DNA of 60,169 nucleotides, counting the filler, from Hausera hauseri (lineage: Eukaryota): assembly GCA_046269625.1 (NCBI GenBank). It is 12 parts of 12 records of this genome, joined end to end, with 100 filler letters (N's around TTAATTAATTAA, not from the genome) between each part and the next. Parts side by side here need not be neighbours in the genome. Positions count along the whole stretch, not along the records: positions 14,928 to 19,786 come from JBJURY010413144.1; 11 more parts are not named here. One strand, 5' to 3'. The notes beneath the pieces are model-generated. The model made no database searches and was not told the DNA's origin. It was given only the letters and a program-made list of their open reading frames with translations. This document shows positions 790 through 58,330 of this stretch, piece after piece. How positions within the stretch are numbered: the stretch's first letter is position 1; every line of letters starts with the position of its first letter. A program made the translations under genes and the position numbers.

Positions 790-931
790 CGTTGTCGGTG
801 TTGTCCATGTAGCTTTCGTTTGCATTGCAACAATTAGAACGGAAAGTGAATGAAAGACTCGGTAAAGTGGGACAAAAAGATGAAAACCATGTACCCATAC
901 CGCCACAACATAATATACTTGCATTCATTGT

Positions 932-1228: not shown

Positions 1229-1504
1229 AACAATAAAGTACGGTTGACTACGTTGAAGCGCATATTTCCTCAGTGTGTATTGATGCGTTGACGTAGTTGT
1301 TTATAATCGCTGTCACTTTGAGGGTAATTTGTGTCTCGTTGATGTTGTTTGAAGCACTGAATTAATTAATCGCTTAACTGCAGCGTTAAGTTTTGCTGCA
1401 GTTTATGCACGTTTCTTTTTTGACACCTGTATGATTGGTTTACGTTTAGCAATTGTTTTGCGGAAATTCTTCATTTCTTCAGTACCATCATCACATCGAT
1501 TTTG

Positions 1505-3592: not shown

Positions 3593-3650
3593 TCATAATA
3601 ATAATTAGTTGTTTTGTGTTATAAAAAATGATTTTGTACGTAAATTAATA

Positions 3651-4188: not shown

Positions 4189-4592
4189 TTATATAATTAA
4201 AAATAATTACCAATTGACAATGGATTTGTTTAAGAGGACATTACTAATGGACAATGATATATATTTCTGGACAAAAAAATAATGTGTCAACAACAACCAG
4301 TATGATGTTGTAATATAAACCCATCGTGTAAGTATAACATGTTTACATTTGTGTGATATAAACAAAACAATTTGATACACATGAATGTATAGAGATAAAA
4401 TTTTATTTTGTCTGTCTCTACAAAAAATGTATTCTGAAAACAATTCAGGTGACTCTTCTGTAAGACAAAGTACAACCAATATTCGCTCAGAAAATGCAGG
4501 TTGTGTAATGGATACAACTTACATTATCTGAGCAAAGCAATTCAATTGCTATTGACTCAAACGGTCAAAACTAAACCGGGGAAATATATTCT

Positions 4593-4829: not shown

Positions 4830-7450
4830 GGCCACGCCGTCAACGATGTGGTGAGACTTGAACGACTAAAGGATATCTTGAGATGGTTGATTTTCTTGGA
4901 GTTTTGTCTGAGTAAAAATTGGCGAAAAATTGACTGAACCGACTGATCTGGATAAAAAATCGGAAACTAGATTGTCAACAGTGAATATGTTTAATGTCGA
5001 AGTTAAACGTGGATAAATATGAAATTTGTCGTTCTTGTCGAGTTGAAGGGTGTTTTATTGCTATTATATTAATCAACGGTTTGTGATCAGTCTGTATAAC
5101 AAAATGATGAGCTATAAGTAAGTGAGAAAAATGTCTTAAAGCAAGAACTATTGCCAGCAGTTCCCGATAGAAAGTTGAATATCTAGTTTCTGGTGGCGTT
5201 AATTTTCGGGAAAAGAATTTTAGGGGCTGATTTTCGCCTTTATACAACTGGTGTAGTACGGCACCTACTGCGATGTTTGATGCATTTGTGGTCAAAATTA
5301 GCTCAGCGTCAGGCTTAGGAAATGCTAGTATTTCAATAGTCTTTAGTTCTTCGCATAGCCTATCAAACTTATTAACCACATGATTTTTTGGTGTTTTTTT
5401 TTCCTCCGCTTAAGTGTACAAAAGATGCCGTGAGTTCCGAACAATATAGGATATAATTGTGGACGAAATGCAAGATACCTAGAAAACTACGCATTTCTGT
5501 GGTTGTCTTAAGTAGTTGGTCGTTTTTAGGAGTCTCAACTCGATCAGGCTGAGGTGAATGTCCGCTTGAGGGCATAACATGTCCAAGAAAATTAACGCGT
5601 TTTTCGAAGATGTTACATTTTGCAAAATTTATCTTTAGGTTGAACTGATTAAGTCGTTGGAAGATAGATCGTATGTGTTCCTCGTGTTGTTTAATGGAAG
5701 AAGAAGCAACCAAGATATCGTAAATATATGGGTGTGAAAAAGGGAAGTCTGAAAGGATTGAGTCGACGTGTCGCTGAAAAGTCTGCGCAGCATTCCGGAG
5801 ACCGAAAAGCATGTACAAGTACTCATAAAGACCGAAAGGTGTGGTAATTGCAGTTTTCTCGACGTCTTCCGGTGCGACAGGAATTTGATGGTATGCTTTG
5901 GCCAAATAAATTGTTGAATAAACTGTAGTAGAATTAAGCCGATGTAATATGACTTTGATTAATGGTAAGGGATATGCATCCATTATGGTTAAAGTATTAA
6001 GCTGGCAGTAATCGCCGTATGGTCGGAAGGATCCATCATTTTTGGACAACGTGGAGAGGCGAAGACCAAGGGGATTTAGTTCTACGGACAATACCCGATT
6101 GTCCGAGTTCAAAATATTCCGCCTCTACTGCCTGCCTGCGACGCGATGACAATGGATGGACCTTTTGTCGAATTGGTCTTTGGTATCGTGTAATTATATA
6201 GTGGTAAATGCCGTTTACAGGGGTGATATTTCGATCTTTCTGAAGTATACGAGGACAAGAAGTATTGATGAATTGTTGTAAACGTACTGGTAGTTGCTGG
6301 AATATTGGAAGTGACGATGAACCGAGGTTGCTAGCAGTACTTGGTGAATGTTAATTGATAGTTGGTGGGGAATCGAGTGGAATTTGATGTAGGATGGTCG
6401 TGTCTGAGACCTTATTCGAGTAAGTGTTGATGTTTAATGATTTTACTGAAGATACAAGATCGTGAGCGTCGGCATTGAGCTGTGACTGACTATCGACATT
6501 GTTCTTTGACAGCTTACGAGGTAAAACGTGATAGTTACGAGAATTAAGAAGTGGTTTTGACTGTTTTAAGATTGACTGCCTACTTATTGTTGGATGTTCT
6601 GTCGTCGGGGGGGGGGCTGCCTATTTCTGTACTATAATCTTCAGGTGTATTTAATTTCAGACATCGTTGGTTACAATGGACTAGAAAGTTATTATACGAC
6701 AGGAAATCGGAGCCAAGTATAGCCGTCTGGACGTTAGCGACTGTAAACGTCCAATGAAATGGTGGGGAAAATTTTGGTAGAGTGAAAGATAATTTGCAAG
6801 TTCTGGAAATATAAATTGGTTGACCGGAGGCGGTGTATAACGGTTTTGTTTTAAGTGAAGAATGTTTAACTAGAAAAGAAAGTGATAGTAATATGATCGA
6901 TGCACCGGTATCAATGAGAAAGTCTATGGATTGAATGTTAGAAGTGAAGATAGCAGCTTTTAGTGTAAAGACTGCAAAAGAAATGTGGCGGCAAGAAGAA
7001 TTAGGTAAGCTGCCTTTGCCAGAATCTGCCGTGAATACTGGCAGCGAAATCAGTTTTTTGGATTGGTGAGTTTGTACGATTAATGTTAGAGAAACTGACA
7101 CGTATATCAGTGGTGTAGTTATGGTTAGTTTTATAGTGGCAGCCCGAAATACAATTCCGTGCATTTGATCAAAATTTTGCATAATTGATGCAAACAATGT
7201 TATCTGAGTGTAGATGCGAGGAATAATATTTACAGCCTAAACAGCATTTATTTGCTTTGTTATTAAATTTGTTTTGATAATAACATATAAATGACCGCGT
7301 TGGTGACGGTGTTCGATTTCTGGAAAGAGAGCGCGTTCGATGAGGTGAGGAAGCATTCCGTCGATGTAAGGAAAGGTCATTCAGCTTATCATTGATGGTG
7401 TTGATTGTATGTTGTTGGTGCAGCGGAATTTAACAGGCGATACTTCCATG
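4830..7450 (-). mobile_element. Ty3/Gypsy LTR retrotransposon, gag end-PR-RT-RNase H (degraded)
   Basis: Gag Cys motif CINYAKF*SNARNCISGC; protease FLIDTGAS; RT DAYPLP...KAYHQIPVAPEDVEKTAITTPFGLYEY...YIYDILVAS; RNase H TNASNIAVGAVL...RELLAI...TDHKPL. Confidence 0.95.
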
Positions 7451-7499: not shown

Positions 7500-8316
7500 A
7501 CACCCAAGGATCGGTGTTTGATATACTATCATCTCCTCAATACTACACACTATCGCTAACACCATCCAATTTCGGTGGTAACTCCTTAATAGACTGCAAG
7601 TCAGTGAATGTTTTGGCAGCAGTATATGGAAAAAGTAGCTTTTCCTTTAATGATGTCAGAAGGAAAAGCCGACTCAGTAAATGGGTAACTATCTAAGTTG
7701 GAAGCCAACGTCTTCAGTGAAGCCGGTAGAAACTGCAGTATCCAGAAATTTAATAGTAACTGACTTTTTACCCGAACAGCGGATCATTGCATTTATTGTT
7801 AGGAACTTTTCTGTTGTTTTCGGAATAATACTTAATTTCCAAATTCCGAATTTACTCGATACGTGTTTCAAGATATGATGAAGATCATATCCACTCAAAT
7901 TGTGAAACATAACTGGTAAGTTGTATTTGATCTGACGAGCCAAGTTACATTTGTTACAAGCAGGACCTAAGAATTTACCTGTAAAATGGCAGTGGTCTCT
8001 AACAAATTGAGAACCAGTTTCATGACAGAAGTAACAAGTTGTTGTATTTTTAAACCCATACCATTCAGCCGAAGTTAACGAGATCATCGGTTTTTTTGCA
8101 TCCTGGTAGAAAGGAAAAACTAAGGTTTTTACTATGTTTTCCAGGCAAGCTAAAAATTCGACTATACAATTTTCACCTACAAATTTACAATATTCAATAC
8201 GTGTTAGTCCTACTAACAAGAAACCGGCTGCAGCAGGCAAATGACTATATTTAATCTTATCGTTAAATAAAAATACAGATTTGAAGTCAGCATATACGAC
8301 AAAAGGAGGACATATT
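7500..8316 (-). pseudogene. Protein-primed DNA polymerase B fragment (Polinton/adintovirus; exonuclease plus endonuclease-VII-like insert)
   Basis: PPFVVYADFKS (ExoI), CYFC...VRDHCHFTGKFLGPACNKCNL, PVMFHNLSGYDLH (ExoII), IKFLDT, KLLFPY. Confidence 0.9.
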
Positions 8317-8425
8317 TGTGGTGTCCACAGCGGCTGGCACCGTCTGGCCTATTTGGTTGGACACGGCCGGGCGTCCGTTGCGGCAACGTCGGGTACATAG
8401 TTGGGCCCGATTCCCCGACTCGGAA
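8317..8425 (+). mobile_element. Gypsy LTR 5' head (copy A), abutting the pPolB gene
   Basis: TGTGGTGTCCACAGCG...GGCCTATTTGGTTGGACACGGCCGGGCGTCCG...GGGCCCGATTCCCC aligns with the PPT-preceded LTR start at 20179(-) and with copies at 45034(-) and 53434(-). Confidence 0.8.
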
Positions 8426-9602
8426 ATTTCACTAATTTTGTTCAAATTTTGGATTATGTGTAATGGGCACAGGACGTGCTGCCCCGAGATCTACTGAACG
8501 TTTTTAATATTTAAAACAGTTGACTTCCGAATACCAACAATCTGATCAATTTAATCATCGAAACCCAATCGTTGCCAATCTTGCAAATATTGCGTACGAT
8601 TGTCGTAATTATCGATATTTGGTTAGATTGAACGTCCTGGACGTATTTTTTTCATTGTTTAACGCAACAGGACAGTACCAAGTACATTAAATTGCGTTCC
8701 GTTATTGGTATATGCAACATATGTGCAAATCAACCATATCATTCGATAATTTGCAACAACGACAATTTATGGTCATTGCTGAATTGTTTATCGTCACCAA
8801 ACATTGACATTGTCATCATAGCAATCATCGCCTTCATTTATTTATGCGAAACCGACATCAGCCGAAGTTCAGTCCTTTTGCCGACCGTCGTCAAGACCTG
8901 TCGGAATTTGCCGCAGTCAACGAATCCACGATTGCTGAACATTGCCACCATATTTCTCTATCATTGTGCTACACCAAACTGCCGTGTGATTTTCTCGAAT
9001 GACGTTCCGATACAATTTCTGGTTGTTGCCGAATCACCTGCGCATTTGCCACTGTAAACCGGTCGTCCGTGTTTTACCTGGTTTCATCACGATTTTCTTG
9101 TTATCTGATGGCAGTTCAGCGACAATTTTCCGTCCGGAATGTCTCTAGCCGACATGTGTTAGTGTGGATTACGTCCGTCACTCACTGCAAAAAATGTCCC
9201 CAGCTGTCGTTGTCAATGGGGAATTGTTTGTCAATCCTAAAAATCCACCATCACAATCTGTCGAGAATATAATGTTAAACAGCGCACTCAGTGCCGCGTT
9301 ACCGTTATCCCAGCAAATCGATATTTATTGGAAACTCGCCAAATATCTGACTTACATTTCTCGTAGTGCTGACTGCCTACTGTGACAGTCTCATGACCCC
9401 AGTACAATCGATCCATGGTTGTTGCTAATTGCCAGTGCCTGTACGTTGTCTACTAGTCCATCAGCGAATGCCTTCAATCAGGTCATTGAAATACCATTTG
9501 ATTTTCAAATGGTTCGTACTCGAAATCGACCACTTGTAGTCGGCAAATTGAGCCCATCACATGCCATACTATTTGCTACAATGAGTTCAATTGTTGAATT
9601 AT

Positions 9603-10492
9603 CTCCACTGGTGTATTGTTCATAATGGTGGTCTTCTAATTCTCACTGCTTATTTGTTGATTAGAGTCCGTGCATGGAGTAAATGCCCTATACAAATATT
9701 TGTCGTTTCCAGTGAAACTAATCACACTATCAATTTAAGAAAAGAATTTAAACAATTCATTTATGATTTTCGAATTGCTGCCGACGTAGAAATTGTCGAA
9801 TTGGATCAAGCTGACATTTCAGCTTATGTTTTCCAACGAACAATGGACATGGATATGCGAAAAAACTCATGGAAAACATGAATTTCGATTCAACACTATA
9901 AGTTCAATCAATTCGTGACAAACATCATACAAAAGGAGATGAGTTGAACTTTGTTGCTGATGCAAAAGCAAAATTGATGTCTGTTCCTAGTATCAGTATT
10001 GATATTGAAGATTACGACGCAAAGAGCAACATTAAATCGAAAGAAGATGACAACAAAGTGCATACCAATCCAGTCGAAAATACTCAATCAGATGGAATGA
10101 AAACATCGACTACAGAACAGATACTTATTTTCACAACTGATGCTACTCCACAGCAAAATCAGCCATCAGTAATCTTTGCAAATCCAGTAAAACCACACTA
10201 GAATGAAACATCAGAACGAAATAATGAATTTACATTTTCTCCCACGGCACTAAAGGGAATGAAACCTCCATGAACCAACAGACGAATGCACAATGCCGTA
10301 AAATTAAACGAAATGATCCGCGGTAAATCTCAAAATGCTTGTTTGGTTCTCGTCAATCTTTTCAGTCCATCAAAGGACAAAACGAGTGATTACAATTACA
10401 TGGAATACGTCGAAACGCTTACCGAAGGACTCTAACGAGTTTTGTTAGTCTGAAGAACTGGCAAAGAAGTCATTACAGCATTTACCGAATAA
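9603..10492 (+). pseudogene. Intronless K-Cl cotransporter (SLC12A4-7/KCC-type) C-terminal domain fragment
   Basis: WCIVHNGGLLILTAYLL..AWSKCPIQIF...RIAADVEIVELDQADISAY; RMHNAVKLNEMIRGKSQNACLVLVNL...NYMEYVETLTEGL*RVLLV*RTGKEVIT. Contains a frameshift and stops, and no introns. Confidence 0.9.
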
Positions 10493-11122
10493 ATCCAATC
10501 ATTGGCANNNNNNNNNNNNNNNNNNNNNNNNNNNNNNNNNNNNNNNNNNNNTTAATTAATTAANNNNNNNNNNNNNNNNNNNNNNNNNNNNNNNNNNNNN
10601 NNNNNNNAGGAGGGGCAAATGAAAAAGCGTGATCCGCTGTACTGTACTGCATAATATCTGGACATTGTGTCTTCACATAGCTGTCGTTCATGTACCTTGT
10701 TGGTACAATAATTAAAGTTACAAATCTATATGGTGATATAATAGTATAACACAATTAAAATAATATACCATTTTGATACGTACAATAAAGTTTCAAGGTA
10801 CAAACTTCATCACTTTATTTATAGTAAATATCATTCAATCAAATTTCAGCCAATCAAAATGAAGTATAGCAATGATTAAACAATATACAGTCTAAATGTC
10901 AATAGTTAAGTACTTCATATGTATGAAAGACACTAGATAACTGTATAAAGTACAATTTTACTTAATGCGTGTGTGTGAGTGACACTAGATAAGTGTATAA
11001 TGTACAGTTTTACTTAATATGTGTGTGTGTACAATTAATATGTGTATGCGTTTTTTTAATGCGATTTTAGGAGTTTTCGCGCGGCGCTTTGCGCTGCGTT
11101 TCGAATAGGAGGGTGGTGATCC

Positions 11123-14100
11123 ACTTGTTAGGTGATGCACTTATTAGGTGATGCACTTATTAGGTGATGCGCTTATTAGGTGAAGCACTTATTACGTGAC
11201 GCACTTATTAGGTGACGCACTTATTAGGTGATGAGATTATTAGGTGATGCACTTATTAGGTGATGAGCTCACTAGGTGATGAGCTTATTAGGTGATGCAC
11301 TTATTAGGTGATGCACTTATTATGTGATGAGCTTATTAGGTGATGCACTTATTAGGTGATGCACCTATTATTTGATGCGCTTATTAGGTGATGCACTTAT
11401 TAGGTGATGAGCTTATTAGGTGATGTACTTGTTAGGTGATGCACCTATTAGGTGATGCACTTATTAGGTGATGAGCTTATTAGTTGATGCACTTATTAGG
11501 TGATGCACCTATTAGGTGATGCGCTTATTAGGTGATGCACTTATTAGGTGATGAGCTTATTAGGTGATGCACTTATTAGATGATAAGTTCATTGGGTGAT
11601 ACACTTATTAGGTGATGCACTTATTAGTTGATGCACTTATTAGGTGATGAGCTTATTAGGCGATGCACTTATTTGGTGATGAGCTTATTAGGCGATGCAC
11701 TTATTAGGTGATGCACTTATTAGGTGATGCAATTATTAGGTGACGAGCTTATTAGGTGATGAGCTTATTACTTGATGTACTTATTAGGTGATGAGATTAT
11801 TAGGTGATGCACTTATTAAACGATGCGCTTATTAGGTGATGCACTTATTAGGTGATTCACTTATTAGGTGACGAGCTTATTAGGTGATGAGCTTATTACT
11901 TGATGTACGTATTAGGTGATGAGATTATTAGGTGATGCACTTATTAGGTGATTCACTTATTAGGTGATTCACTTATTAGGTGATGCACTTATTAGGTGAT
12001 GAGCTTATTAGGTGATGCACTTATTAGGTGATGAGCTTATTAGGTGATGCACTTGTTAGGTGATGCACCTATTAGGTGATGCACTTATTAGGTGATGCAC
12101 TTATTAGTTGATGCACTTATTAGGTGATGAGCTTATTAGGTGATGCACTTGTTAGATGATGCACATATTAGGTGATGCACTCATTAGGTGACGAGCTTAT
12201 TAGGTGATGCACTTATTAGGCGATGCACTTATTAGGTGATGCACTTATTATGTGATGAACTTATTAGGTGATGCGCTTATTAGGTGATGCACTTCTTAGG
12301 TGATGCAATTATTAGGCGATGAGCTTATTAGGTGATGCACTTGTTAGGTGACGCACATATTAGGTGACGCACTTATTAGGTGATGAGCTTATTAGGTGAT
12401 GCACTTATTATGTGATGCACTTATTATGTGATGCACTTATTATATTATGCACTTATTAGGTAATGTACTTATTATGTGATGCACTTATTAAGTGATGAGT
12501 TTATTAGATGATGCACTTATTAGGCGATGCACTTATCGGGTGATGCACCTATTATGTGATGCACTTGTTAGGTGATGCACATATTATGTGATGCACTTAT
12601 TAGCTGATGAGTTTATTATGTGATGCACTTATTATGTGATGCACTTATCAGGTGATGCACTTATTAGGCGATGAGCCCATTGAGTGATGCACTTATTATG
12701 TGATGAGCTTATTAGGTGATGCACTTGTTTGGTGATGCACCTATTAGGTGATGCACTTATTAGGTGATGCGCTTCTTAGTTGTTGCACTTATTATGTGAT
12801 GTACTTATTAGGTGATAAACTTATTAGGTGATGAGCTTATTAGGTGATGCGCTTATTAGGTGATGCACTTATTTGGTGATGCACCTATTAGGTGATGCAC
12901 TTATTAGGTGATGAGCTTATTATGTGATGCACTTGTTAGGTGATGCATCAATTAGGTGATGCACTTATTAGGTTATGAGCTTATTAGCTGACGCACTTAT
13001 TAGGTGATGCACTTATTACGTGATGCACTTATTAGGTGATGAGGTTATTAGGTGATGCGTTTATTAGGTGATGCACTTATTACGTGATGCACTTATTAGG
13101 TGATGCTCTTATTAGGTGATGGGCTTATTAGTTGATGCTCTTATTAGGTGATGCGCTTATTAAATGACGCGCTTATTAGGTGATCCGCTTATAAATTGAT
13201 GCGCTTATTAGGTGATGCGCTAATTAGTTTATACGCTTAATAGTCGATTCACTTAGTAGATGATGCACTTTTTAAATGATGAACTTATTCGGTGATGCCC
13301 TTCTTAGGTGGTGCGCATATTAGGTGATGTCCATGTTTCTCGATGCACTTATTAGTTGATGCGCTTATTAGGTGATGCACTTATTATGTGAGGCACTTAT
13401 GAGGTGATGCGCTTAATAGGTGGTGCGCTTATTATCTGATGCCCTCGTTTGTCGAAACATTTATTCGGTGATGCGCTTATTATGTGATGCGATTGTTAGG
13501 TGGCGCGCTTATTAAATGATGCTCTTGTTTGGCGATGCACTAATTAGCTGATGCGCTTATTTCGCGATGTACGCACTACGTGATGCACTTATTAGGAGAT
13601 ACACTTATTAGGTGATGCACTTATTCTTTGATGCACTTATAGGTGATGCCCTTATTAGGTGATGCGCTGATTAGTTGATACGCTTATTAAGTGATGCACT
13701 TTTTAGGTGATACGCTTAATAGGCGATGCACTTATTATTTGATGCACTTCTTAGGTGATGCTCTTATTATGGGATGCGCTTATTAGGTGATGCACATATT
13801 AGTTGATACACATATTAGATGATGCGCTTATTAGGCGACGCACTTATTAGGCGATGTACTTATTAGGAGTTGCGATTATTATGTGATGTACTTATTAGCT
13901 GATGCGCTTATTAGATGACGCACTTATTAGGAGATGCGCTTATTTAGTGATGCACTCATTAGGTGATGCACTTATCAGGTGATGCACTTATTATATGGTA
14001 CACTTATTAGGTGAATCGCCTATTAGGTGATACGCTTATTAGCTGATGTGCATCTTAGGTGAAGCACTTACTAGGTGAGGCGCTTATTAGGTGATGCGCT

Positions 14101-14827
14101 TATTAGGTGATGCGCTTATTAGGTGATGCGCTTATTAGGTGATGCGCTTTTTGGATGATGCGCTTATTGGATGATGCACTTATTATTTGATGCACTTATT
14201 TGGTGATGCAATTATTAGGTGATGCACTTGTTTGTCGATGCACTTCTTAGGTGAAACGCCTATAAGCTGGTGCGCTTATTAGGTGATACCCTTGTTTGAC
14301 GATGTCCTTAATAGTTGATACGCTTATTAGGTGACGCACGTATTAGGTGATGCACTTATTAGGTGATACGCTTCTTAGGTGATGCACTTATTAGGTGATG
14401 CGCTTATTAGTTGATGTACGTATGTGGTACACTTATTAGGTGATGCACTTATTAATTCATGTTCTTATTAATTGATGAGCTTATGAGGTGATGCGCTAAT
14501 TTGATGATGCACTTATTAAATGATGCTCTTCTTAGGTTATGCGCTTATTAGGTATTTCTTTTATTAGGTGATGCGATTAATAGGCGATGCACTTATTAGC
14601 TGGTGCGCTTATTAGGTGATGAACTTATTAGGTGATGCACTTATTAGGTGATGCGCTTTTTAGATGATGCACTTCGTAGTTGATGCGCTTATTAGGTGAT
14701 GCCCTTGTTTCTCGAAGCACTTATTAGGTGATGCTCTAATTAAGCGATGCCCTTGTTTGTCGAATCACTTATTAGATGGTGCGCTTCTGAGTTAATGCAC
14801 TTCTTAGGTGATGCACTTCTTTGGTGG
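11123..14827 (+). repeat. 16-bp tandem satellite, consensus TTATTAGGTGATGCAC (~230 units, runs into the contig end)
   Basis: Directly visible 16-nt periodicity, with variants ...GATGAGC and ...GATGCGC. Confidence 0.98.
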
Positions 14828-17800
14828 NNNNNNNNNNNNNNNNNNNNNNNNNNNNNNNNNNNNNNNNNNNNTTAATTAATTAANNNNNNNNNNNNNNNNN
14901 NNNNNNNNNNNNNNNNNNNNNNNNNNNTAAAGAACCTTCAGTTAATAATGAATTTGGGGGGCACTGTTACCTGTCTAATGAAGAAACCTTATAACACTGC
15001 GCGCTTCAATTTTGTCCATCAGGCAGGTTATTGAAAACTACCAGTTTATAAAACAAAACAAGTTGACATAAGCAACTGTAATTTACAACATCCTGAGTAT
15101 ACGAGTAAATGATTATGCTGGTAAGTTTATAACTGAATAGAACAATTGCTTCATAGCGATAATTACGTGAGTACGCTAAGGATAGCTAATGCGGCGAAGG
15201 CAAAGACAGACGCGGAACGCAAAGAGGCAGAAAAAGCTAGCCCGCCAGATTTAGATGTCATGATGACAACTCAATTACTAAACGGTATATGGTCCAGAGA
15301 CTTGGTTAAGCAACTAATTTTAGCTGGACCAGACAATTTTGAGACTGCATTACAGTTATTTCAGAACTTAGAAATGGCACTAGATAGATGCGCTAGACAG
15401 GGTGATAGGTATGACCAAAATAATGATCGTGATAATCGGGATAGAAACCAAAACAATAGAAGATTTAACGATAATAATAAGAGTCGAGGCTATGAAAATA
15501 GAGTTCAAAATGCCGCTAATCGCAACACAAGATATGATAATGGGAACTTTAGTGATAATCAGAGCACATAATTCTTACAACAAAACAGGTTATATTTCGG
15601 ATAAGAACCAAAATAATGACCGAAGCAATAAGAACCGATATACAGATAATCGAAGTTTCGAAAATAGAAATAACGGAATCGATAAGCAAGCTCAACCAAC
15701 TCAAAACAAAATAACAGGCAGATCCAAATCACCATTGAATGAATACGGACGACAAAGGATCGGCCGAGACGGGAATCTGATTTGTTATTCATGCGGTAAG
15801 GAAGGACATATAGCTAGATCATGCCCTAATCCACGAAGCGTGTCATTTTCAGAGACCAGTAAAGCTAGCACAATAAAGGATAATTTGGAAGGAATCTATG
15901 GAAAACGAGGTGATATAAGCATGATTATCGAGATGCAGGACTTACGAAGATATATAAGAAATATGGGCGAATCTAATAATCCACAAGTAATCAAGGCCAG
16001 GAATGAATATGAAGAAAAGTTGCAGCTAATGGAAGTTTATCATGGGTTGAGAGAACCAAAAACGGAGTACAAAAATGCCAGGAAAATAAACCTAAATCAG
16101 GTAGTGGAAGAAGAAAAGCTGACTACGTCTCCAAGTGTAGACTTGGAAGCAGATACCGAGGTCGCGTCTCAAAATAAGGACAAAACAATAGACGAAGTTG
16201 AGAGCGAATTCATTGGTCCACTAATACGTAAGATAAATAAAAATAGGGGTAGAAACCCCTCACTTAGGAGAAGGTCGGGAATTCGTTTCCGATCCCCTAT
16301 TAAAAAGATTTAGAATAGAAGGAAGACTTCACCATCACCTTAAGAGATGAAACGGAGTTAAATACTCCTGTTATAAACCAAGGCGTTCCGGAAACAACAA
16401 ATATTTCGAATATCGATGAAATTAATGAAATATGTTCGTTACTTTCTAAGTTTGGAAAGATTAGAAAATTTTGGAAAAATGCAAACGAACTAACGGAATT
16501 AAGAGATGCACTGAATGATCCCGGAAGGCTACAAGAGAGACTGCAAAAGCTCCAGCAGATGAGCAAACAGTTGAATATCTCCGGAAAAGAGCAACAATTC
16601 ATAGAAAAGCTATATGAAAAGCTTAAACCCGGATTTCAGAAACAGGAAGAAAACACACCTCATGAACTCCACGAAACGTTGCAAGGCTTGATAGGAAGTT
16701 GGCAAAATAAATTAAAACTGTGGACAGGGAGCGAAACTGATTTTATGAAAATATGGTGGAATAGAAATGAGGCGTTTCCCGATCAGGTTAGTCAAGCGCA
16801 AAGACTATTAAATGCACTAAAAAGCAACCCAAAACTAAAACGCGTCAGGCGTAATTTAGAAGGACTGATATACAAGATCGAAGATGCGATAAATTCTTAT
16901 CTTCATAACAAGCCAGTATATGAACTGACTAATGTCGACCTGGAGATATTGGGCATAGGCCCAATCGATTTTCCCCCTTTAATAGCAATATTCAGCCTGA
17001 TAAAATATGGTCCTCGACGATACTCGGATTTGAAAATACGCATTGAAAGAGAAAACGAAATACGAACCAAAATCAACGACTTAAAAATTAGTGTAGTTCA
17101 CCCTGATAAAGCAGAAGCACACAGGAAAACACGTGCTTGTCTCCTCGAATTAGATGGGCATAAAGAAGAATTCAACTACATAAAGCATATCATAGCATTT
17201 GTACGAGCACCAGATCACAAACTAGAAGAAGCTGTTGGAACATTAAACGAAATAATCGACGCTAAACCTGAAATATCTAAAAAATAAGAAAGTGGATAGA
17301 CTGGTTATCTTCTTAAGTAGAGGTAATAAAGGAAAGATTAAGAGAATTTGCTATGATGGAACCTTTAATAAAACACCAATTGGAAGAAATGTTACTAGAT
17401 ATCGGTACGATGGAAGACGAAGCGAAATTGCGAATTAAATTCAAATCATTCCGAGAACTAGAATTTATGGGCAAGGGTCAAGATCAAATAACACTAACAG
17501 AAATATATAGTATGGTAAAAGAGAAGGAATTCTATAGAAAAAGAAACAAGCTAAATGATCTCCAGCGGAGACTAGCGAACATTCGTTGGGAAGGGATACA
17601 GAACCTAATGCAGAAACCATTGAAGGAAATCTCAGCACAAGAAATAGAAACATTAAAATTAATAAAAAAAAGAATCCAGCAGAATGGACACCAGGTTTCG
17701 ACCTATACTGCCACACCGAACTAACGGAAATTAAGAAGGATCCTCAGTTGACGTGCGATGAAGCCAAGTTTATAGGCAGGCTAATGGACGCAATATATCC

Positions 17801-18564
17801 AGATGCCAAAGTAATAAACCAAACGCACAAATTAATCCTACTATTAACAGAAATGGCAGAAATTGACGAGGTAGTAGCCGAACGGCTAATAAATCGAATA
17901 CGCCTTTCAAAAGAAATCCGGTTAAGCTCCTAGAAAAGACAGTGCGAGCTAAACGAATTATTGAGAGAAACAGAAGTTTATAAGAACAAGTACTTCGTCA
18001 CGGAATCTGAAATTAATGACAAAATAGAATTTACGCAAAGATGGCAGAGACAGAATCGCGGAAATAACTATCTATCAAGAGAAAGCCTTAATACAACCAG
18101 AAGAAATGTGCCGACTAATAAAAATGATACAACAAGCCTGCGGAAACGGGGATGGACTTAGGATATCCATAATGAAAACATTGCAACCACGGATAAGAGA
18201 ACTACGCGAAAGAGTCCAGGTTGGCCACGCGGCATTAGAGAACTACGGGTTACCGGACGCGGATAATGATGCCGAGTGGGATGAATACCTCCAAGGTTTA
18301 AACCAGCAAAGTCAAAGAACTCCAATGCAAATTTTTGAGTCACCTATTGGCACCCAGAAGACAAACTTCGACGTGCAAATGCTACTTGATCCCACGCTAA
18401 CTGAAAAGGAACTGAGCAGTGCATTGAAAATAAACATAAGCGAAGGTAGGTTAAGTAAATTGATTCCAACCTTAAGCAAACAATCCAGTGAAAACACCGC
18501 ATACAGCGCTGTACTCAAGCTCCTAATAAGAGAATACTCCAAACTGTTGAAAAATAAACCAGAA

Positions 18565-18795
18565 GTGGAAATTAGAGTGAAAGTATGACACGAATGGATG
18601 GACGACGAAGAAATTGAGTGCACTACCTATACCACCGTCGGGGATATAAAACAGCGGATAATGGATAAGGATGGTAGGAAAGGAGTTAATTATCGACCCT
18701 ATTTCAGGAGCAGGATATTAGACGAGCTAAAATCCTTGACAGACGTAAAGTTTATACCCCTCGAAGAAAATCAAATAATAGCAATAATCGTCAGC
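18565..18795 (+). CDS. Ubiquitin-like domain within the retroelement polyprotein
   Basis: VEIRVKV*...EIECTTYTTVGDIKQRIMDKDGRKGVNYRPYFRSRILDELKSLTDVKF matches the beta-grasp pattern (TV.D.K..I...G....RL.F.G+.L+D..SL.D); one internal stop. Confidence 0.6.
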
Positions 18796-19489
18796 GAGCA
18801 AACCAAAGATGAGGCCATGAGAAAGGCACATACAGAGCACTGCGTTGGAAGAATCATGGGGATTCAGGATGCTGCACTGTATTTCGAATACTTACAGACT
18901 GATGATGACAAACCGCAGTACGATAGGAACTTAGTCCCTCTAAGTAAAACCTTACCGCCGATGAAAGCGAAACGACCGGTCGAGAGACCAAGAAAAATAA
19001 AAGAAATTGACTATAATGCAGATCTAATTAGAGAATTGAGACAACTATTGGTACCAACCCCAAGCTCAAATAACGAAGAACTAATTGAGCAAATTAAAGA
19101 CCTAATTAGGATAGTCAATTATACCGGACTCCAAGGCGACATATTATCCGAGAAGGAAAGACTAATATATAATATAGGCCGGACAATGAAGACCTCACGA
19201 TTTAAATTATCTAAAAGCACCCTCCCTGACAAAACAGTAATTTATAGAATTATGATAGACAATACGATGGAAGAATTAAGGAAAGTCTTGATATATTTAG
19301 AAGTAAGAACTAACCCACTTCAAGAAAACGAATTCGACAAAACAATTGGGTTAGCTAAAAAAGCTGCAAGAAGGGAATCTAAAGAAATAAAATGGACTAA
19401 ATTATTCAAAAAAGAAGAAAATACAAAACGGGCTAATACGTTAGAGGACATGATACGAAATATCTCCCCGAACAATGGAAACGAACCCA

Positions 19490-19786
19490 ATTGGTTAATC
19501 AACTTGTTGACGATAATGATGCTAGTAAAGCAGATAGGATTAGTCACTATATACAAATGCGACAAATTTAAGGTGGGTCAGAAATATTCCTTGATGGACT
19601 TAGAAACATGCGAAGATGCGAGGCCTCATAAGCTCGAGACAGCAGAAAAAAATACATACTATATCAAGAGCGTGTATTAATCTCAATGGATGCAACGGAA
19701 TGCATGGTACGGAGATCCCGCAGCATATTTCATTGTGGTAATATACACGGTCATTCTTCAATAATCAAACCAACCACACCACTAAT
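19490..19786 (+). pseudogene. Envelope glycoprotein N-terminus (herpes gB/chuvirus-like class III fusogen type)
   Basis: Hydrophobic signal WLINLLTIMMLV followed by IYKC, SLMDLETC and (after a frameshift) YQERVLISMDATECMVRRSRSIFHCG; homologous to 57860-58330. Confidence 0.6.
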
Positions 19787-20077
19787 NNNNNNNNNNNNNN
19801 NNNNNNNNNNNNNNNNNNNNNNNNNNNNNNTTAATTAATTAANNNNNNNNNNNNNNNNNNNNNNNNNNNNNNNNNNNNNNNNNNNNGGCATGAACATTCT
19901 TTTGATTTGTCACAACTTTTGGTATGGTTAAATATACTAATACTATACAAACAACTTGGTTGATTACCACATGAAACATTACTTGCATAACATTTAAGAG
20001 CTTGTATTAACGTGTGCGACTGATTAGTTCTATCTGTCTGTTATCTAACGTCGCAATCTTATTGTGCCGTTTCGAGG

Positions 20078-20935
20078 TGGAAGATCAGGGCCCGCCTATG
20101 TGCCAGACGCGTCGGCAGCGGACACCCGACTGTGCCCAACCAAATGGGCCAAAGGGCACCGATCGCTGTGGGCATTACATCACTCCCCCCTCCGTGGCAA
20201 AGTGAAAACTATAAAGAGTAAAAGGGCAGAGAGAAAAAAATCGCAAAACGAAAAGTGTCTGTGTCAGCTGAGCTCAGTGTGAATAAGACGTTGGGTACCT
20301 TCAACTGATTTCTCCCTGCTATATTTGCTAAATGTGACTCTGCGTGTTGTATCTTTATGCGGTGTGTTTGTTTGCAGACATTGAGGTTAGGGAAAAAATA
20401 TGTTAGATTGTGGTGTATGTGTTGTGTCGTGCGAAGATAAGTCGGAATAAAGAGAAGAAGAGGGCGAAGAAAAAAGAGAAATTGCAGAAGGCGGATGGTT
20501 AAAGGCATTGAAAGGAGTGTTAGAAGACGAAAAGTGATAAAAGGTGTAGTGGCGGATAAATGAAGAGAGAAAAGGGTTGGATTAAAAATTGTAATTGAGT
20601 TGGATGTAAGAGTGCAAGAGGAAGATGAAACAGAGGGAGTGGTGGAGATAAGAAGAGTGGTAGGAATAAAAGTAGAATGTTTAGAAAATGAGGCAGGATT
20701 AGGAGCGGAAGGGGGAGATGGAACAGGTGTAGCAATAGATATTGGAATAACAGGGAATGTGGGAGTGGGAAAAGAGGTTGACGTGTAGGTTGGTAAAGTG
20801 TAGTCGACGAAGAAGGCGGGCTTTAAGTTGGTAATACGCAATGTAAGTTCTTTGCCATCTTTAGAGATAATGGCGTTGTGTAAGTGCAGTTGTATCAGTT
20901 TATAGGGTCCCAGGTACCTGATTCTTTAGCCATAC
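20078..20935 (-). mobile_element. Gypsy 3' end: integrase GPY tail, S/P-rich extension, PPT and 3' LTR head (copy B)
   Basis: GPYKLIQ...LRITNLKPAFF; PPT GGAGGGGGGAGTGA (20193-20180) directly followed by TGTAATGCC at 20179. Confidence 0.88.
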
Positions 20936-23900: not shown

Positions 23901-24513
23901 TAAACCATTTTTTATTCGTCCAGAATACTTAGTATATACATACTATTTTATAGTAATGGTAAAATCATTAATTTATCCTTTCATTTGCGTATGTACCCGA
24001 TGTTAGAATAAAATAAATCAAATAATTAAAATAGTTATCACGAGTATATAATCAATATTATTAGAAGAAAGGAAGGAATTAGAAGGATACAGAAGAAAAC
24101 AGAAATTAATTAAAAATCCAAAAAATTGAGGTGCCCATGAAGAATTGATCATCGTACATCTTCGTAGTGTCGTTGGATCGATCATATGAATATAAGCAAG
24201 ACCTTGCAAAACATACTAAAGAACTCACTAAGCCTTTGGATATTATGAAATAAAAGTAAATTGCCTAAACGATAGAGAAATGAACAACACAATAGAGTTT
24301 AATTTTATCAAGCAAATCAGATTCACATCTTATTTATATGTTAGGTACTAATTAAGGTTTAAACTGACCCCTGTACCACTAACATATAAACTGGTGCCCC
24401 GAGTGAGGAGCACGTAATGGTTATAAGGATTTGGATTTAAGGAATGAAGCATCAAGATAAACGAATTGATACTCTATTGTCAAATATATTTAGCACCATA
24501 GCGAATTTTAGTT

Positions 24514-24813
24514 TTGGTAATTTTAGGAACAACACCTTGTGATATATGCTTTGGACCCCTCGGGAGAAAATATGCTTTGCTGAGATGCACTCATATAATG
24601 TGCACTCGTTGCGCCGATAAATGGCTGATGAAGAACCAGACATGCCCGTTCTGCAGAAGAAGAACCACATCTTATCAGTGTTGGGGAACCACCGTAGTGG
24701 TAATCCCGGATGAAGAAGAAAGTGGAACAGAAGAAGATGAGGAAGTAATGCCAGAAGATCAGCACGATCTGTATGTGTATGGACCTAACAGAATCGTGTA
24801 CATGCCAATTTGA
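24514..24813 (+). CDS. Small RING-finger (C3HC4) protein with acidic tail
   Basis: CDIC-x11-CTH-x2-CTRC-x10-CPFC, then DEEESGTEEDEE; AATAAA just after the stop; start codon uncertain. Confidence 0.75.
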   Translation: MVILGTTPCDICFGPLGRKYALLRCTHIMCTRCADKWLMKNQTCPFCRRRTTSYQCWGTTVVVIPDEEESGTEEDEEVMPEDQHDLYVYGPNRIVYMPI

Positions 24814-26130: not shown

Positions 26131-26666
26131 AAGATTTCGTCCATTGAACAATCCATCCAAAACAAACCTGTTCGGATCACTTCGAATTCAGAAAGAATAT
26201 TCAGCAGGAATTCCGGTGAAACTAAATAATGCCTTATGCAAACCCCGATGGTTCTTATACTGTAATTGTTCTAATCAAGTGGTATAAATATCGGCCAAAT
26301 CTTTCGTCTCTCAAACCATTGGACAAAATGAATTTGGAGTAAATGGAAGCGATTTACGTTACGGCATTTACCGTTTAAGAAAAGTGGAATTTATAGGTTG
26401 GATGACATCCTTAAAGAACTCTACACAGCACCATGGTTGGTTTTATTTACTTGTTTCAGCACAAGAAATTGTTGATTAGTTCATGTACCACAGATGTATT
26501 CAATTTCTGCTGCGAAACTCTGTTCCTAACTTAACTACATTTAATGATTTTGGATATTGCCGTGTTTCTGCCTTTAATTAAAATTTGTTAACATAGAATA
26601 CATTTTATAATTGATGATTGATAATTGATTACAATAACGTTTGAATAAATTTTTACATTACGACTT

Positions 26667-29600
26667 TTGATTTTGGGATTTTCTCAGATTATCGTTGATA
26701 TTCGCTTTGGAATTTATTTATCAACATTAAAACTGGTGTCAGAAGTATTTTTCATTGTGTGGTGCTTTTCGGCAGTTTACTTAATCTTATTCTTTGTTTC
26801 ACTGGTTTTGGGATATCATTCAGAAAAAAAGTTGAAGATGTTTATCATATTTTTGATTGTTTGCAGCGATATATTTGTGTTCAGTCATCCTATAGTATCA
26901 GTCATCATTCTACTCCATCCATCGTTGTTTTACAATTGCACATTGACGACAAAGATTTTACACAATGTTGGATTATATAATTACTTTTCCATGAAGTACT
27001 ACCATATTATTCGTCTCATATTGCCGGATGTCTACGTATTTTTGGTATCCATTTTTGTGCTCATTTTTCTACACAGCTCGTCTACGGAGATGGACAGTTT
27101 CGAGAATATGCGCAACAAAATTCTGGATTCTTGGCTTTATCAAAGAATAAAAATCATTTTTACTCAACTTCTAATATTATTCGTCAGTATATTATCTCCT
27201 TCATTTACGAATTTCACCTATTTCTTCATGTTCATTCTCGTCGATACAATGTGGGCCGGCGGATTGCGAATTACATCACGATGTCTTTTGTCTATACGAA
27301 CATTCATCATGACCTATTTGGCGATCAATATTAGTTTAATTTATGCTGTACAGTTTGAATATTTTCGAGAATGGTTTCCAGACAATAAATTACATTCAAG
27401 ACTACTCGGGATTTATCATTTCGTCGAATTCCCATGTAGAATTAAGAATGAATTTAATGTTTTACGTCAAAGGATTTACGATTTCCTTGTTCCGCCGATT
27501 TTGGTTATATTGTACTACATTCATTCATTCGATAGTGGTGTATATTTTGATACGAAAACATTGGAGAACCTTGCCATAATGCCACAGTTTTTGAAACGCA
27601 GAGGAGCCCACAGTTATATCAATTCCAGCAACGAAACAAAATCAGAAATCATTAATGTTAGTCGTCCATTTACGTGGAGCATAATAAATTCAGTTATCAG
27701 AAACAGCTATATATTATCATTTATCGCCATGATGGTATGGAGTGTTGCATATACATCGTGGTTAACGTTCTTGTTTATTTTCACCGCATGTATTCTATGG
27801 TTAATGCCAGACGCAAGAAAGGCTTGTTTAATGTGCAGTCCCGCCATAGTAGCATATGGGATTGCAATGAACTTGGCATTTTATCTTTCAAACATAAACA
27901 TACGTGACTTAATCAATTTAATTTTGTCCCGTTTTTCATATTTGCAATTGACAACCTTTCAGTCGGATATTCCATTTGTGCCACTCTTGCTTTCGTTTGT
28001 ATATTTGATAATATTCTGGATGACTCTAAAAATTCTAGACAAAGAAAGAGAACGGAAGTTAGAAGCTATGGTACCCGGAGCTCCACAGTTTGAAGATAAC
28101 AAACTGTACAAATTATATGTGGTATTCATACGCTACGTTTGTACCAAATATTGGCTGGTTGTGTGCTGTATAAGCTTACTGATGGAATCATTACAGAAAA
28201 CAACGAACGCTATATTTATCATCTATTTCATACTCATTACATACTTTTTATATTTCTTTATGTTACAATATAATGTGTGGAGAAAGCAACTCTACGCATT
28301 CCTATGGGTTGTCGTGGGTTATTCACTCATAACCGTATTCGCAATATATACATTCCACTTCAAAATCTTCCGAGATTTATGGATTAAACTGGAATATATA
28401 TCTGGAATTAAACTTAGTGACATTGGCTTGAATTCGTATCCTCCTCACGATTTATTCGAAGCTCTAATGACTCCCGTTTCGCTTCTTGTTATTACTATAA
28501 TACAAGTGCGTTATTTTCATCAAGTCTTTATGAAAATAATTTCATTTGATACCAGAGACGGAGGAAAACGAGAATCACCATACAGACTTAAAATAACAGC
28601 ATCAACACTTTCAGCGTATGATCAAAACTTTGTTGTTTCAACATTTCATATATTGTTGGCCCGTATGCAAAGATCGAAAGGTCCTCAAGAATGGAACTAC
28701 TTTGTATCAGACGTGAACGCAGCATTCGTTATAATAGCAAGTAAAATATCAGTTTACATCAGGATTTTGGGTGATAAATTTTGGATATTTCTTGAAATCC
28801 ACATAACAAAATTCGTTATTTTTTTAATATCCTACGTAATAACAAATGATGTCAATGATTATCATTTTGACTATGCTCTTTTGGTTGCTTTACTCTTTCC
28901 CATTACACGTTTACATAAGATATTCATTTTACTGTTGTATACGCTTTTGGTAGTACAAATGTTGTCGCGAATGATCTTTCAACTTACTTTTGTAAATGAT
29001 GAGCAGTGGATTGTTGACTGCAACATTAAGAATATATTTTCTGTAAATCGCAGTACGAGAAATATGAATCTTGCAGTATATTTCGGATACACCAAATTCC
29101 ATAATTTCAGATCATCCAACTGGTTTATAACATTCAATATAATTCTATGTGCGTTTTGGTTTGTTTTACTGTACCATCAACACAGGAGAGAAACATGGCC
29201 AAGAGAAAAGAGCGTTTTGTTTCCTGAAGCCAGCTGCAAAAATGCCAACGATTCAGTGGTCAATATTTTAAAACTTACATTGAATTATATTTTTTACAAA
29301 ATAGGCTTGGAGTTATGCTTAATAATGACTGTTATTGATGCATATATACGACTCGATGCCATCTCCATGTTTTACCTAGTATTACTGTTACTATATCTTC
29401 CCTCATCTAGATTATTATGTTCACAACTTTGGCCAATATACTTAGTAATTGTCTGTTTGCTCATACCAATCCAGTATATGATTTGTGTTGGTTATTTTCC
29501 AGGATTTTGCAAAGACTATATGGTAATCACAAACCAGAACTTGGTCAAATGGCCTTTTCTTCCAAATTATGAAATTCCTCTAGAATCCAAAAAAATATTC

Positions 29601-29900
29601 GTCGATGTACTTCTCCTTGTCTTCATTTGTTGTCAGTACCACGTATTTCGTATTGAAAAACAATCATTGGACTACAAAGGTGGACGAAACATTCCAACCT
29701 TAGTCAACGATATGCCCGATATTGAAAAGAAGGATTTCACGGTTGCTGAAGTATCTGAGATATCAGACACCGTCCAGTGGGTGCCTGCAGAAGAGAAGTT
29801 TTTAAACACTTACAGCGAAGAATCAAAAGATGACTTGTCGGTATCAAAAGGTAATCATGATGATTTCTATCAATTTGATCTCAGTCCAATAAATTCTCTG
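26667..29900 (+). CDS. piezo: Intronless Piezo mechanosensitive channel N-terminal half (truncated, probable retrocopy; no pore domain)
   Basis: Multi-TM ORF with Piezo signatures NC...ILHNVGL..IIRLILPDV, SFIAMMVWSVAYTSWLTF, FWIFLEIHITK, FYKIGLELCL, LWPIY..QYMICVGYFPGFC, DVLLLVFICCQYHVFRIE. About 1,080 codons with no intron or stop. Confidence 0.9.
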
Positions 29901-29902
29901 GT

Positions 29903-29952
29903 TGGGGAACCGAGCGTGCCCGCCCCCGCTGCGCCGCGTCACTTATCCCTGT
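29903..29952 (-). mobile_element. Inverted short LTR head (copy H) with PPT-like AGGGATAAGTGA
   Basis: Reverse complement ACAGGGATAAGTGA-CGCGGCGCAGCGGGGGCGGGCACGCTCGGTTCCCC aligns with ACAGGGGGTGA-TGTGGTGCTGCGGTGCTGGACACAACTCGTCTTCCC at 45578-45624. Confidence 0.55.
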
Positions 29953-30157
29953 TAATTTTTTTTAATAACATGCACATCAGTACCTTTTATGCTCCACACA
30001 CGGGTACCTTGCATTGTCTCTACTCACATCTAGTCTCTCTCCTCCACTCGTCTGAATNNNNNNNNNNNNNNNNNNNNNNNNNNNNNNNNNNNNNNNNNNN
30101 NTTAATTAATTAANNNNNNNNNNNNNNNNNNNNNNNNNNNNNNNNNNNNNNNNNNNN

Positions 30158-55861: not shown

Positions 55862-58330
55862 AAAGCCTCCTATGAACAATGATAAAAAAATAAAAAACTA
55901 TCAGTCAAAGGAAAACTATCAAAAACCGTTTTATAAAAAGCAGAATCAAACGGAACAACAGCAGAAGAAGGTTAAATGGCAATAAGATCAACCTCAAAAG
56001 TCTGTTATGAGAAAACTAACGGTTAATCAGAATGGACAGCCATTATGCTTTGCATGCCAAAAATATGGGTATATGGCTTGCAGCTGCCCTAATCAAAGAC
56101 AGTAAAGTCAAAAAAAAAGAACGTTAATATAGTAGGTAATATATCTGACACGGATAATGAGCACGAAACTACAGATACAAGACCTGAAGAAACAATTGAG
56201 AAGTTACAACAGAAGATTAGATCCAAATTGAAAGAAAGTAAAACTAATACAATAGAAGATGAAGATACAATATCCGAATTAAAACAGCTGTACCTTAAAT
56301 TAAAGTAGCAACAAACTTGTGAGAGAAGACAGAAAATGAATGATGAAATTTTAGTTATTGCTCCTATCGGTAGACCCAAAAAGATTCCTGTATCAGAGTC
56401 GGATACTGAAAAGAAAAGGATTAAGAAGGACAAACCCTTGATACAATGTGAAAAACTGAGGACTATGTAATTTAACCTATTTTCTGGAAGTGAAAGTGAA
56501 AAGAGTGAGTCAAGTGAAGAAAGTAAACCCAAAGAGAAGATAAAAAGAATAAGGAAAAAGAAAATAAAGGAAAAATCCACAAGTTATGAGTCTTCACCTG
56601 TGGACTTAGATCAGGATGGCGTAGAAATAGTTCGGAAAATATCCAGTTATGCCAACCAAGAATTAATTGATGGTATTCGGTTTAGACAAGACCTGTCCAT
56701 GTTACTGTCGCCAACAATCAGTCATCAACAGTTTGCTAATTTATTGGACTTGTTGTTAATGTATGCCGCTGGCACAAGTCCATAACAAAATGTGCGATAT
56801 ATAATTTACCGGTATGCTGATAGTGAGAACGGTCGGAGAAAACACTGAAATAATGGTTACTCTCCAACAGTATAATCAGGACTTTCATGTTCTGAAGATA
56901 AAATCGTTGGATACAATAGCTATATTAAAGCATAAAATTAACGAAATAAACCAACCTCAAGGAGAATTAGAGCTACGCTTCTACGGACGAACGCTGATGG
57001 ATTATGAAACTTTATATGAAGTAGGCATCTGGGAAAACCGATACAATCCTGTGTGCATTACTTATAGACAGTCTGAACAAAAAATAATTGATGAAACTAT
57101 TACTGATGTTAGACGAAAAGAAACACAAGTTGAACATCAGAATCAGGAACAACCAGTAGAAGCTGGAATGAATATTCCCATATCAGAGCAAATACAAACA
57201 TATAAGAGAAACTGTGGTAGACCAAAAGGAACAACGAAACTATATCAGTTGAATAGCAGGAAAGCCAGAGATGACAAAATCGTTCAAAGATTATTGTCAA
57301 CAGAAGATGAATATGACGTAGTTAATGTATCACTGGCAACATTACTACAAACCTTGTTAGCAAGAATGCATAATGCATTCGTTGAGTTTAATACTAATCT
57401 GCAAATACCAGATTCACTAATGCAAGCTATAAGGAATGAGATCGCAAAGATTAGTAAACAATTTGCAGATATTCCTACGGATGAGAGGATAAATGAAATC
57501 CAGGAAAGAGTTATATTATCGAGAATGATGGAGACCGCCATATCCCGAAATAAAATTGTAAAGCAATATCCTATCTCTTATATAAAATAATAGCGATGAA
57601 TGGTATAAATCCGAATCAGGAAGAGGTATAGAGAAATATAGAAATTGCTGCCAGAGACTTAAAGGCCAATTTCGAAGGATGGGTAAAATGTAGAGCTTGA
57701 TGGATTACCAGTTTGGTTTATACAGCAATAAATGAACCGGCCCAACTACATAACAAGAACAGAATATCATCCACCTCAACAACCAAAGAGACAACAAAAT
57801 CTACAATCTGATTTCGATTTATCATTGTTAACTAAAGTTATACCCATAAGTCTTCTGTTTAGCCTGATGCTAAAAGCACTTTCAATCATTGCTTACGATT
57901 GTAGTCAAGCTAATGAAGGTCCAATATATTACATACTAGACTTAGAACAATGCCCATTTGCCAATTTGGCGTCACTAACTACAATATCGGAAAAGGAATA
58001 CCACGTTTATCAAGAGTCAAAATTTGTGAAATCTAAAGTGAAAGAATGTTTCGTTCGAAAAAATCATTTCCACTTTATTTACGGATATTGGTATCGAAAT
58101 GCAGCAATAGTTGAACCAACTACTCCGTTCGAACCAGTCCATATAAGTAAACGAATGCGTATAGAGGCCTTTGTAACAAAACAGATTAATATTGGGAATA
58201 TTCGGTTGAAGGCTCAAAAGGGAAAATCATTAATAAAAGAATTTTTGTAACTGGGACAATTCATAAAACAGGATAGCGTTTCAGCAAAGGTTTAACATTA
58301 AAATAATAAGAAATTCTCATGAACATGACC
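55862..58330 (+). mobile_element. Second gag(CCHC)-Ubl-AT-hook-env retroelement-like polyprotein (degraded)
   Basis: Knuckle CFACQKYGYMACSC at 56046-56087; Ubl LKIKSLDTIAILKHKI..ELELRFYGRTLMDYETLYEVGI; GRPK motifs; env LLFSLMLKALSIIAYDCS..ILDLEQCP..YQESK..KECFVRKNHFHFIYG. Confidence 0.75.

Follow-up and report, generated by a model that had tools for sequence, protein, structure and literature searches.

In Nematoda, Bryozoa and Platyhelminthes, the envelope (env) proteins of errantiviruses are exclusively of the HSV/gB type (HSV, herpes simplex virus) and the elements are arranged GAG-ENV-POL, according to the report by Chary and Hayashi (PMC13524379), whose table contains nine flatworm elements, six of them from Schmidtea with 1-215 intact copies. 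The same source refers to non-canonical env-pol metaviruses of nematodes (Sacco et al. 2022, via PMC13524379) and to GAG-ENV-POL elements of bryozoans. In planarians, the giant gypsy-like elements Burro/GYPSM1 (Arkhipova and Yushenova, PMC6431247; Grohme 2018 and Jurka 2007, via PMC6431247) encode one polyprotein that contains a Gag bearing two or three CCHC knuckles, together with Smc, MATH, BIR, ankyrin, Ubi2/SUMO-like and BCL2 domains and an in-frame env, with protease, dUTPase, reverse transcriptase (RT), RNase H and integrase 3′ of env. Burro in the strict sense has a polyprotein of ~5000 aa and a total length >30 kb, and decaying Burro fragments have been noted in Dugesia japonica (PMC6431247). 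Here we compare with these systems an element found in a 60,169-nt stretch of DNA from Hausera hauseri (GCA_046269625.1; the whole stretch is referred to as the window), which consists of 12 short contigs with 100-nt N spacers between them. The element, at 14928-19786, is a broken member of a multi-copy retroelement family, cut short by the contig end, with the order gag, accessory region, ubiquitin-like domain (Ubl) and start of a gB-type env. It is likely a flatworm Ty3/gypsy GAG-ENV-POL errantivirus of Burro-like make-up whose pol would lie beyond the contig end. The order gag-Ubl-env has already been described in flatworm elements.

The element occupies one whole contig of 4.86 kb, with its domains on the + strand in the order weak capsid remnant, N/R/D-rich linker, CCHC, K/E-rich region, Ubl, basic motif, spacer, hydrophobic segment and env start. 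A second element of the window, from 55862 onward, has the same domain order and is called the sister element below. When the open reading frame (ORF) of the sister's Ubl was used as a query, one protein was returned, P0001 (1130 aa, 75%), and P0001 is collinear with the element at 14928-19786 by tblastn. The features, with the evidence for each, are as follows.

14928..19786, no strand assigned: the element's contig, bounded by spacers at 14828-14927 and 19787-19886, so that both ends are artificial
15137..15400, + strand: likely what is left of the C-terminal part of a Ty3/gypsy capsid domain (weak match to the P0001 capsid)
15783..15824, + strand: single CCHC zinc knuckle of a putative nucleocapsid (Pfam zf-CCHC PF00098, E 8.8e-7)
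15825..18339, + strand: K/E-rich accessory region (ORF map; four frame changes plus stops)
18340..18561, + strand: short module directly 5′ of the Ubl, common to P0001, residues about 385-460 (shuffles, tblastn)
18562..18792, + strand: putative Ubl without a Gly-Gly end, with an in-frame stop at 18586-18588 (PF00240, PDB search)
18970..19002, + strand: basic motif KRPVERPRKIK, without the GRP core of an AT-hook (motif scan)
19003..19482, + strand: spacer at the position of the weak Bcl-2-like match of P0001 and of the Burro BCL2 (comparison with P0001)
19495..19551, + strand: hydrophobic segment, likely the internal signal sequence of env (hydropathy)
19549..19786, + strand: first ~79 codons of a putative gB/chuvirus-type (class III) env, with a frame change near 19650-19660 (PF24664)
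56028..58273, + strand: sister element on another contig, with CCHC, Ubl, GRPK, Bcl-2-like region and env start (tblastn versus P0001)

An earlier sequence-only reading of this DNA had proposed a gag with a CCHC knuckle followed by ~2.7 kb of K/E-rich sequence, and both are present. The knuckle is found by Pfam as listed, and the stretch from it to the Ubl measures ~2.74 kb with a K+E fraction of 0.17-0.34 across five segments. This stretch is coding DNA, as had been proposed, but not one ORF, since frame changes and stops interrupt it. The score of the capsid remnant against the P0001 capsid was reached by 14/1000 shuffles, and the N-terminal half of the capsid is unrecognisable in this copy. 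The P0001 capsid in turn matches Drosophila Arc2 (E 0.0068). Taken with the knuckle, these matches point to a gag of Ty3/gypsy type (capsid plus CCHC), weak in its capsid part in the present copy.

At the other end of the contig, the sequence-only reading had placed a signal peptide and an env cysteine pattern. A hydrophobic segment and a gB-type env start are indeed indicated, while the cysteine pattern as it had been read crosses the frame change near 19650-19660. The hydrophobic segment has a mean hydropathy of 1.92, the maximum of any 19-residue window in frame 18589-19677, and the hydropathy maximum of P0001 lies at the matching place (residues 784-802). The env start matches Pfam Monjiviricetes_fusion PF24664 (E 1.9e-4; 20 bits against a cut-off of 27; profile positions 58-95 of 653) and is 38% to P0001 836-888 by tblastn. 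For both env pieces, 0/1000 shuffles reached the score obtained against P0001. These matches argue for an HSV/gB-type env following a signal or membrane segment. The last stop in the final env frame is at 19629, and the contig ends ~79 codons past the first env cysteine motif with the env frame still open.

Between these two ends lies the Ubl, which the sequence-only reading had also proposed and which the searches favour. In this copy its match to Pfam ubiquitin PF00240 is weak (E 0.074, under the cut-off). In a PDB sequence search 54/54 matches at E<=10 were ubiquitin-family chains, the best single-domain match having an E of 0.04, and query residues 22-66 were aligned with ubiquitin 16-60. 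The module directly 5′ of the Ubl is common to this copy and P0001 (0/1000 shuffles reached the score); it belongs to no family found by Pfam and is probably helical. The string KRPVERPRKIK was found where the sequence-only reading had placed a degenerate AT-hook, but an AT-hook has a GRP core flanked by basic residues, and GRP occurs in none of the six frames of 14928-19786; the AT-hook part of that assignment is dropped. P0001 carries GRPK at residue 586, between Ubl and env, in the same interval as the basic motif.

P0001 presents this arrangement in a single unbroken frame of capsid, CCHC, Ubl, GRPK, Bcl-2-like stretch and env, and ends inside env. Its Ubl has an E of 0.031 and its env matches PF24664 with an E of 6.3e-19. 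Residues 651-748, between Ubl and env, give a weak Bcl-2 match (PF00452, E 0.055) at the position of the Burro BCL2, and the PDB sequence search returned no Bcl-2 match for this region. The sister element is 61-70% to P0001 residues 191-937 by tblastn, with an E of 3.4e-6 for PF00240 and 0.009 for PF24664. Its match to P0001 halts at 58273, and nothing further matches up to the contig end, which suggests that the sister env is cut by unrelated DNA. The element at 14928-19786 had been labelled copy 1, implying a second copy in the window. The sister proved to be only a distant relative: blastn found no match between the two, and in BLASTP the similarity was confined to the env start (56 aa, 32%). 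Two very different families therefore appear to have in common a gag that is in frame with the pre-Ubl module, the Ubl and env and is not separated from env by pol, while their other cargo differs. The accessory K/E ORF showed no match to P0001 beyond chance (121/1000 shuffles reached the score), the score of the spacer at 19003-19482 against the P0001 Bcl-2 region was reached by 193/1000 shuffles, and that of the whole Ubl-to-env spacer by 318/1000. Within the accessory region Pfam gave only sub-threshold matches of coiled-coil type. The ESM Atlas contained no usable match for 16319-17284 or for P0001 370-790, and 0/6 proteins were matched in PHROGs.

The present copy is decayed and broken and is not one ORF. 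Its reading path shifts frame six times (near 15565, 16315, 17300, 17690, 18030 and 19650-19660, the junctions being placed from the stop map), and two further in-frame stops lie at 17931-17933 and, within the Ubl, at 18586-18588. To see whether such breaks are shared, other copies can be consulted in one public sequencing run that contains the stretch, which may be the source of the window itself and so not independent of it; among RNA runs, none is listed as containing the stretch. From this run, 8059 contigs map to the stretch and cover 30/30 bins, most at 85-95% identity (480 at >=99%, 1410 at 95-99%, 3630 at 90-95% and 2539 at <90%). At the stop within the Ubl, contigs from other copies depart from the window sequence, and near the env frame change they cease to fit; these breaks therefore look specific to this copy. 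Summed contig depth is 563 in 14929-15090 versus 7474 in the next bin, with a loose end before 15177, and the copy is probably 5′-truncated near 15150-15177. At least 15 joints in the contigs skip 17-1398 nt within 15320-19550, in keeping with family members that carry internal deletions.

The differences between copies also carry a signal of selection. Of the 40 differences listed among 50, the 34 up to 19643 (in 19231-19643, which is one frame) were sorted into those present at <90% of depth, taken as family-variable, and those at >=90%, taken as near-fixed, a threshold set after viewing the table. Third codon positions accounted for 13/17 of the former and 2/17 of the latter (Fisher p 4e-4). 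In the other two frames, used as a control, 2/17 fell at the third position, and thresholds of 0.85 and 0.95 left the picture unchanged. The third-position bias of the partly shared differences indicates that the family diversified under protein-coding selection and that this copy decayed neutrally later. The stretch thus belongs to a real high-copy family that was once selected as coding.

We also looked for pol. A motif scan of all six frames of the 4.86-kb contig revealed neither protease, RT nor integrase motifs, nor any BIR motif, and Pfam found no pol family between gag and env. Nothing of pol stands between gag and env in this copy, as the sequence-only reading had held, and P0001 passes from gag to env in one frame. 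That reading had gone further and called the element pol-less and, as one option, non-autonomous. Since the contig stops inside env, content 3′ of env cannot be observed and the absence of pol cannot be concluded; moreover, another copy is represented by at least one contig that extends past the end (296 nt, of which the first 218 letters fit 19570-19786 and the remainder runs beyond the contig end). We consider it unlikely that this is a non-autonomous family that kept gag, accessory domains and env, lost pol and was copied by a related autonomous element. The high copy number, the 4.86 kb free of any pol motif and the equal lack of visible pol in the sister element and P0001 would all suit such a family. 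Yet this copy, the sister and P0001 all end inside env, where pol could not have shown, and in the closest described elements pol follows env. A particular form of this idea would be a high-copy satellite provirus with gag, the 2.7-kb cargo, Ubl and a gB-type env under selection, which borrows pol from a Burro-like helper and supplies particles rather than enzymes; we give it an equally small chance. The family would be of greater importance if it truly were without pol. Because the known relatives have pol after env, the missing pol of the errantivirus-like element that we favour likely lies beyond the contig end. The order gag-X-env(-pol) for an enveloped retroelement, also put forward in the sequence-only reading, is supported and has precedents (PMC13524379, PMC6431247).

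Drawing on these relatives and on general polyprotein knowledge, we infer how an intact member might work. One long polyprotein would be made, with Gag and the accessory domains remaining in the cytosol. The hydrophobic segment 5′ of env would act as an internal signal directing the env ectodomain into the endoplasmic reticulum, and the env membrane anchor would bring the chain back to the cytosol, where protease, RT, RNase H and integrase would follow. Cutting at env would be performed by signal peptidase and elsewhere by the element's own aspartic protease. The Ubl, as part of the accessory cargo, would serve for interaction and would not be cleaved, much as the Ubi/SUMO-like and BCL2 domains do in Burro. 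The sequence-only reading had instead seen in it a processing site for host deubiquitinases (DUBs). DUB cleavage requires the Gly-Gly end of ubiquitin, and no Gly-Gly was found in or behind the Ubl in 3/3 sequences (this copy, the sister element and P0001); a DUB site is for this reason improbable. Such a site would free the downstream part in the manner of cytopathic pestiviruses, whose ubiquitin inserts are cut by host ubiquitin C-terminal hydrolases (PMC8310069), and the Ubl does lie in frame within a polyprotein as those inserts do. The pestivirus insert is near-authentic ubiquitin, whereas the Ubl here is far diverged; env has its own signal segment ~235 codons 3′ of the Ubl, and the env start is ~250 codons away from the Ubl. 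The DUB reading is largely refuted, and we regard it as the least probable of the alternatives considered. The Ubl would be better explained as a module for binding, carried along with cargo related to apoptosis and ubiquitin as has been proposed for Burro.

It also seems quite improbable that the element is an ordinary gag-pol-env element with pol deleted or replaced internally, or a gB-bearing BEL/Pao element like Anakin, which we take to have a BEL/Pao backbone with env after pol. Replacement might account for an accessory region that is wholly different between this copy and P0001, and BEL/Pao elements with a chuvirus-type env are known (Anakin: PMC7642597; PMC12440569), so that Anakin, like the present element, would represent an LTR (long terminal repeat) element that captured a chuvirus/gB-type env. 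On the other side, two unrelated-looking families have the same pol-free order of CCHC, pre-Ubl module, Ubl and env, and the family covers the whole stretch. There is only one knuckle, and unlike in Anakin the capsid, in P0001, resembles Arc (Ty3/gypsy) and env is in frame with gag. Troyka (PMC12440569, as far as its available text goes) was considered as well, and no link was found.

Several results weigh against the Burro-like errantivirus that we prefer. No pol has been seen linked to this family: the locus searches were empty, and P0001 also ends inside env. For P0001, 1 pattern match in viral contigs and 43 in metagenome contigs gave 0 confirmed loci, and for 18589-19677, 113 pattern matches in metagenome contigs likewise gave 0, these searches having been made without an env-alone profile. 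Protein searches with this copy returned no relative: 18589-19677 gave 0/4948 candidates among proteins of 637-2000 aa, and 18028-19677 (with X at the stop) gave 0 matches at E<=0.001 among 1.84 billion representatives. P0001 itself forms a cluster of 1 member, and of the 7832 candidates for P0001 640-1130 the sole match was P0001. The Ubl of this copy does not match that of P0001 beyond chance (54/1000 shuffles reached the score), and AlphaFold models from single sequences were uninformative (mean predicted local distance difference test scores of 34.7 and 34.4). Burro has two or three knuckles versus one here, and its env has been likened to the gypsy F-type env (PMC6431247) while the env here appears to be gB-type. 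No Bcl-2, BIR, MATH or ankyrin signal was obtained in this copy by Pfam (at E<=10 for Bcl-2 in the spacer) or motif scan, in a sequence whose decay lowers sensitivity. The comparison with Schmidtea env sequences given below was by eye, over 38 residues and unscored.

On neighbouring contigs of the window there are a Piezo frame, remnants of gypsy pol and of Polinton-like elements, and a satellite, which points to a eukaryotic source rich in repeats. The Piezo channel ORF (26649-30056, + strand, 1136 codons; PF24871, E 2.2e-91) has no stop, which suggests few or no introns there and a eukaryotic host. Two decayed gypsy pol regions, at 4855-7236 (- strand; protease, RT, RNase H) and 34445-38259 (- strand; RT, RNase H, integrase), are 65% identical over 1.4 kb; these ORFs were considered as the pol of the env elements, and no link was shown. 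Polinton/Maverick-like remnants at 1-4592 and 7692-8348 contain integrase-like and ATPase-like frames (by eye), a dUTPase (PF00692, E 1.2e-9) and an endonuclease VII (E 4.3e-6) with DNA_pol_B_2 (E 0.019). The dUTPase at 3181-3507 was ruled out as a piece of Burro pol, as it has no protease or RT beside it and has Polinton-like neighbours. A 16-bp satellite (11115-14826; 232 copies, 78% matches) makes up most of one contig. A repeat of ~110 nt, likely either the edge of an LTR or a short interspersed sequence, occurs on four contigs (8316-8426, 20069-20182, 44924-45037 and 53331-53427; 76-86% identical). An inverted repeat pair at 58980-59160 and 59716-59884 (77% over ~180 nt) possibly marks the two termini of a small DNA transposon. 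Gene fragments include SLC12 (9585-9878), a RING finger (24502-24810), a piggyBac-type DDE transposase (30486-30761) and a dual-specificity phosphatase (52124-52420).

Among described systems, Burro is close in composition. In this copy a Gag with CCHC, a long coiled-coil-like region and a Ubi/SUMO-like domain are followed by env in frame, so that a Ubi2/SUMO-like domain upstream of an in-frame env, as in Burro, appears to be present, in weak form. P0001 adds, in the interval from Ubl to env, the weak BCL2-like match. The accessory region is shorter than that of Burro, and because of the single knuckle and the lack of detected MATH, BIR, ankyrin and BCL2 we call the element Burro-like and do not file it as Burro. 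Its 2.7-kb accessory region, for which no relative was detected, could hold new host-modulating domains.

In arrangement and env type, the element resembles Smed_errantivirus_1-6 (PMC13524379), which likewise have gag before env without pol between them, a gB-type env and multiple copies. This copy differs from them in being broken and contig-truncated, with neither pol nor LTRs in the observed sequence, the two ends of the element being either outside the contig or lost from it. The Smed env rows (PMC13524379 supplement 2) and this copy have the start YQE...EC...CG in common by eye, and from 19662 on 18/38 env positions are identical to Smed_errantivirus_5 with one gap (by eye). The env of P0001 has long motifs in common with all six Smed rows, which by eye are missing from the 8 bryozoan and 8 nematode env rows among those listed. 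Env before pol with a gB-type env, as we propose here, is also found in the nematode env-pol metaviruses and the bryozoan GAG-ENV-POL elements, and we believe that these likenesses together would place the host among flatworms and pol downstream of env. The words 'ubiquitin' and 'Burro' have 0 occurrences in the main text of PMC13524379, and it is not stated there whether the six Smed errantiviruses are identical with Burro copies. With the present elements, the flatworm-type gag-accessory-env(-pol) group would gain two families that are divergent and more compact, and the pre-Ubl module, Ubl and env start common to both point to a conserved core of the cargo. They would also connect the Ubl/BCL2 cargo of Burro with the gB-type env of the GAG-ENV-POL errantiviruses, two published descriptions neither of which cites the other by name.

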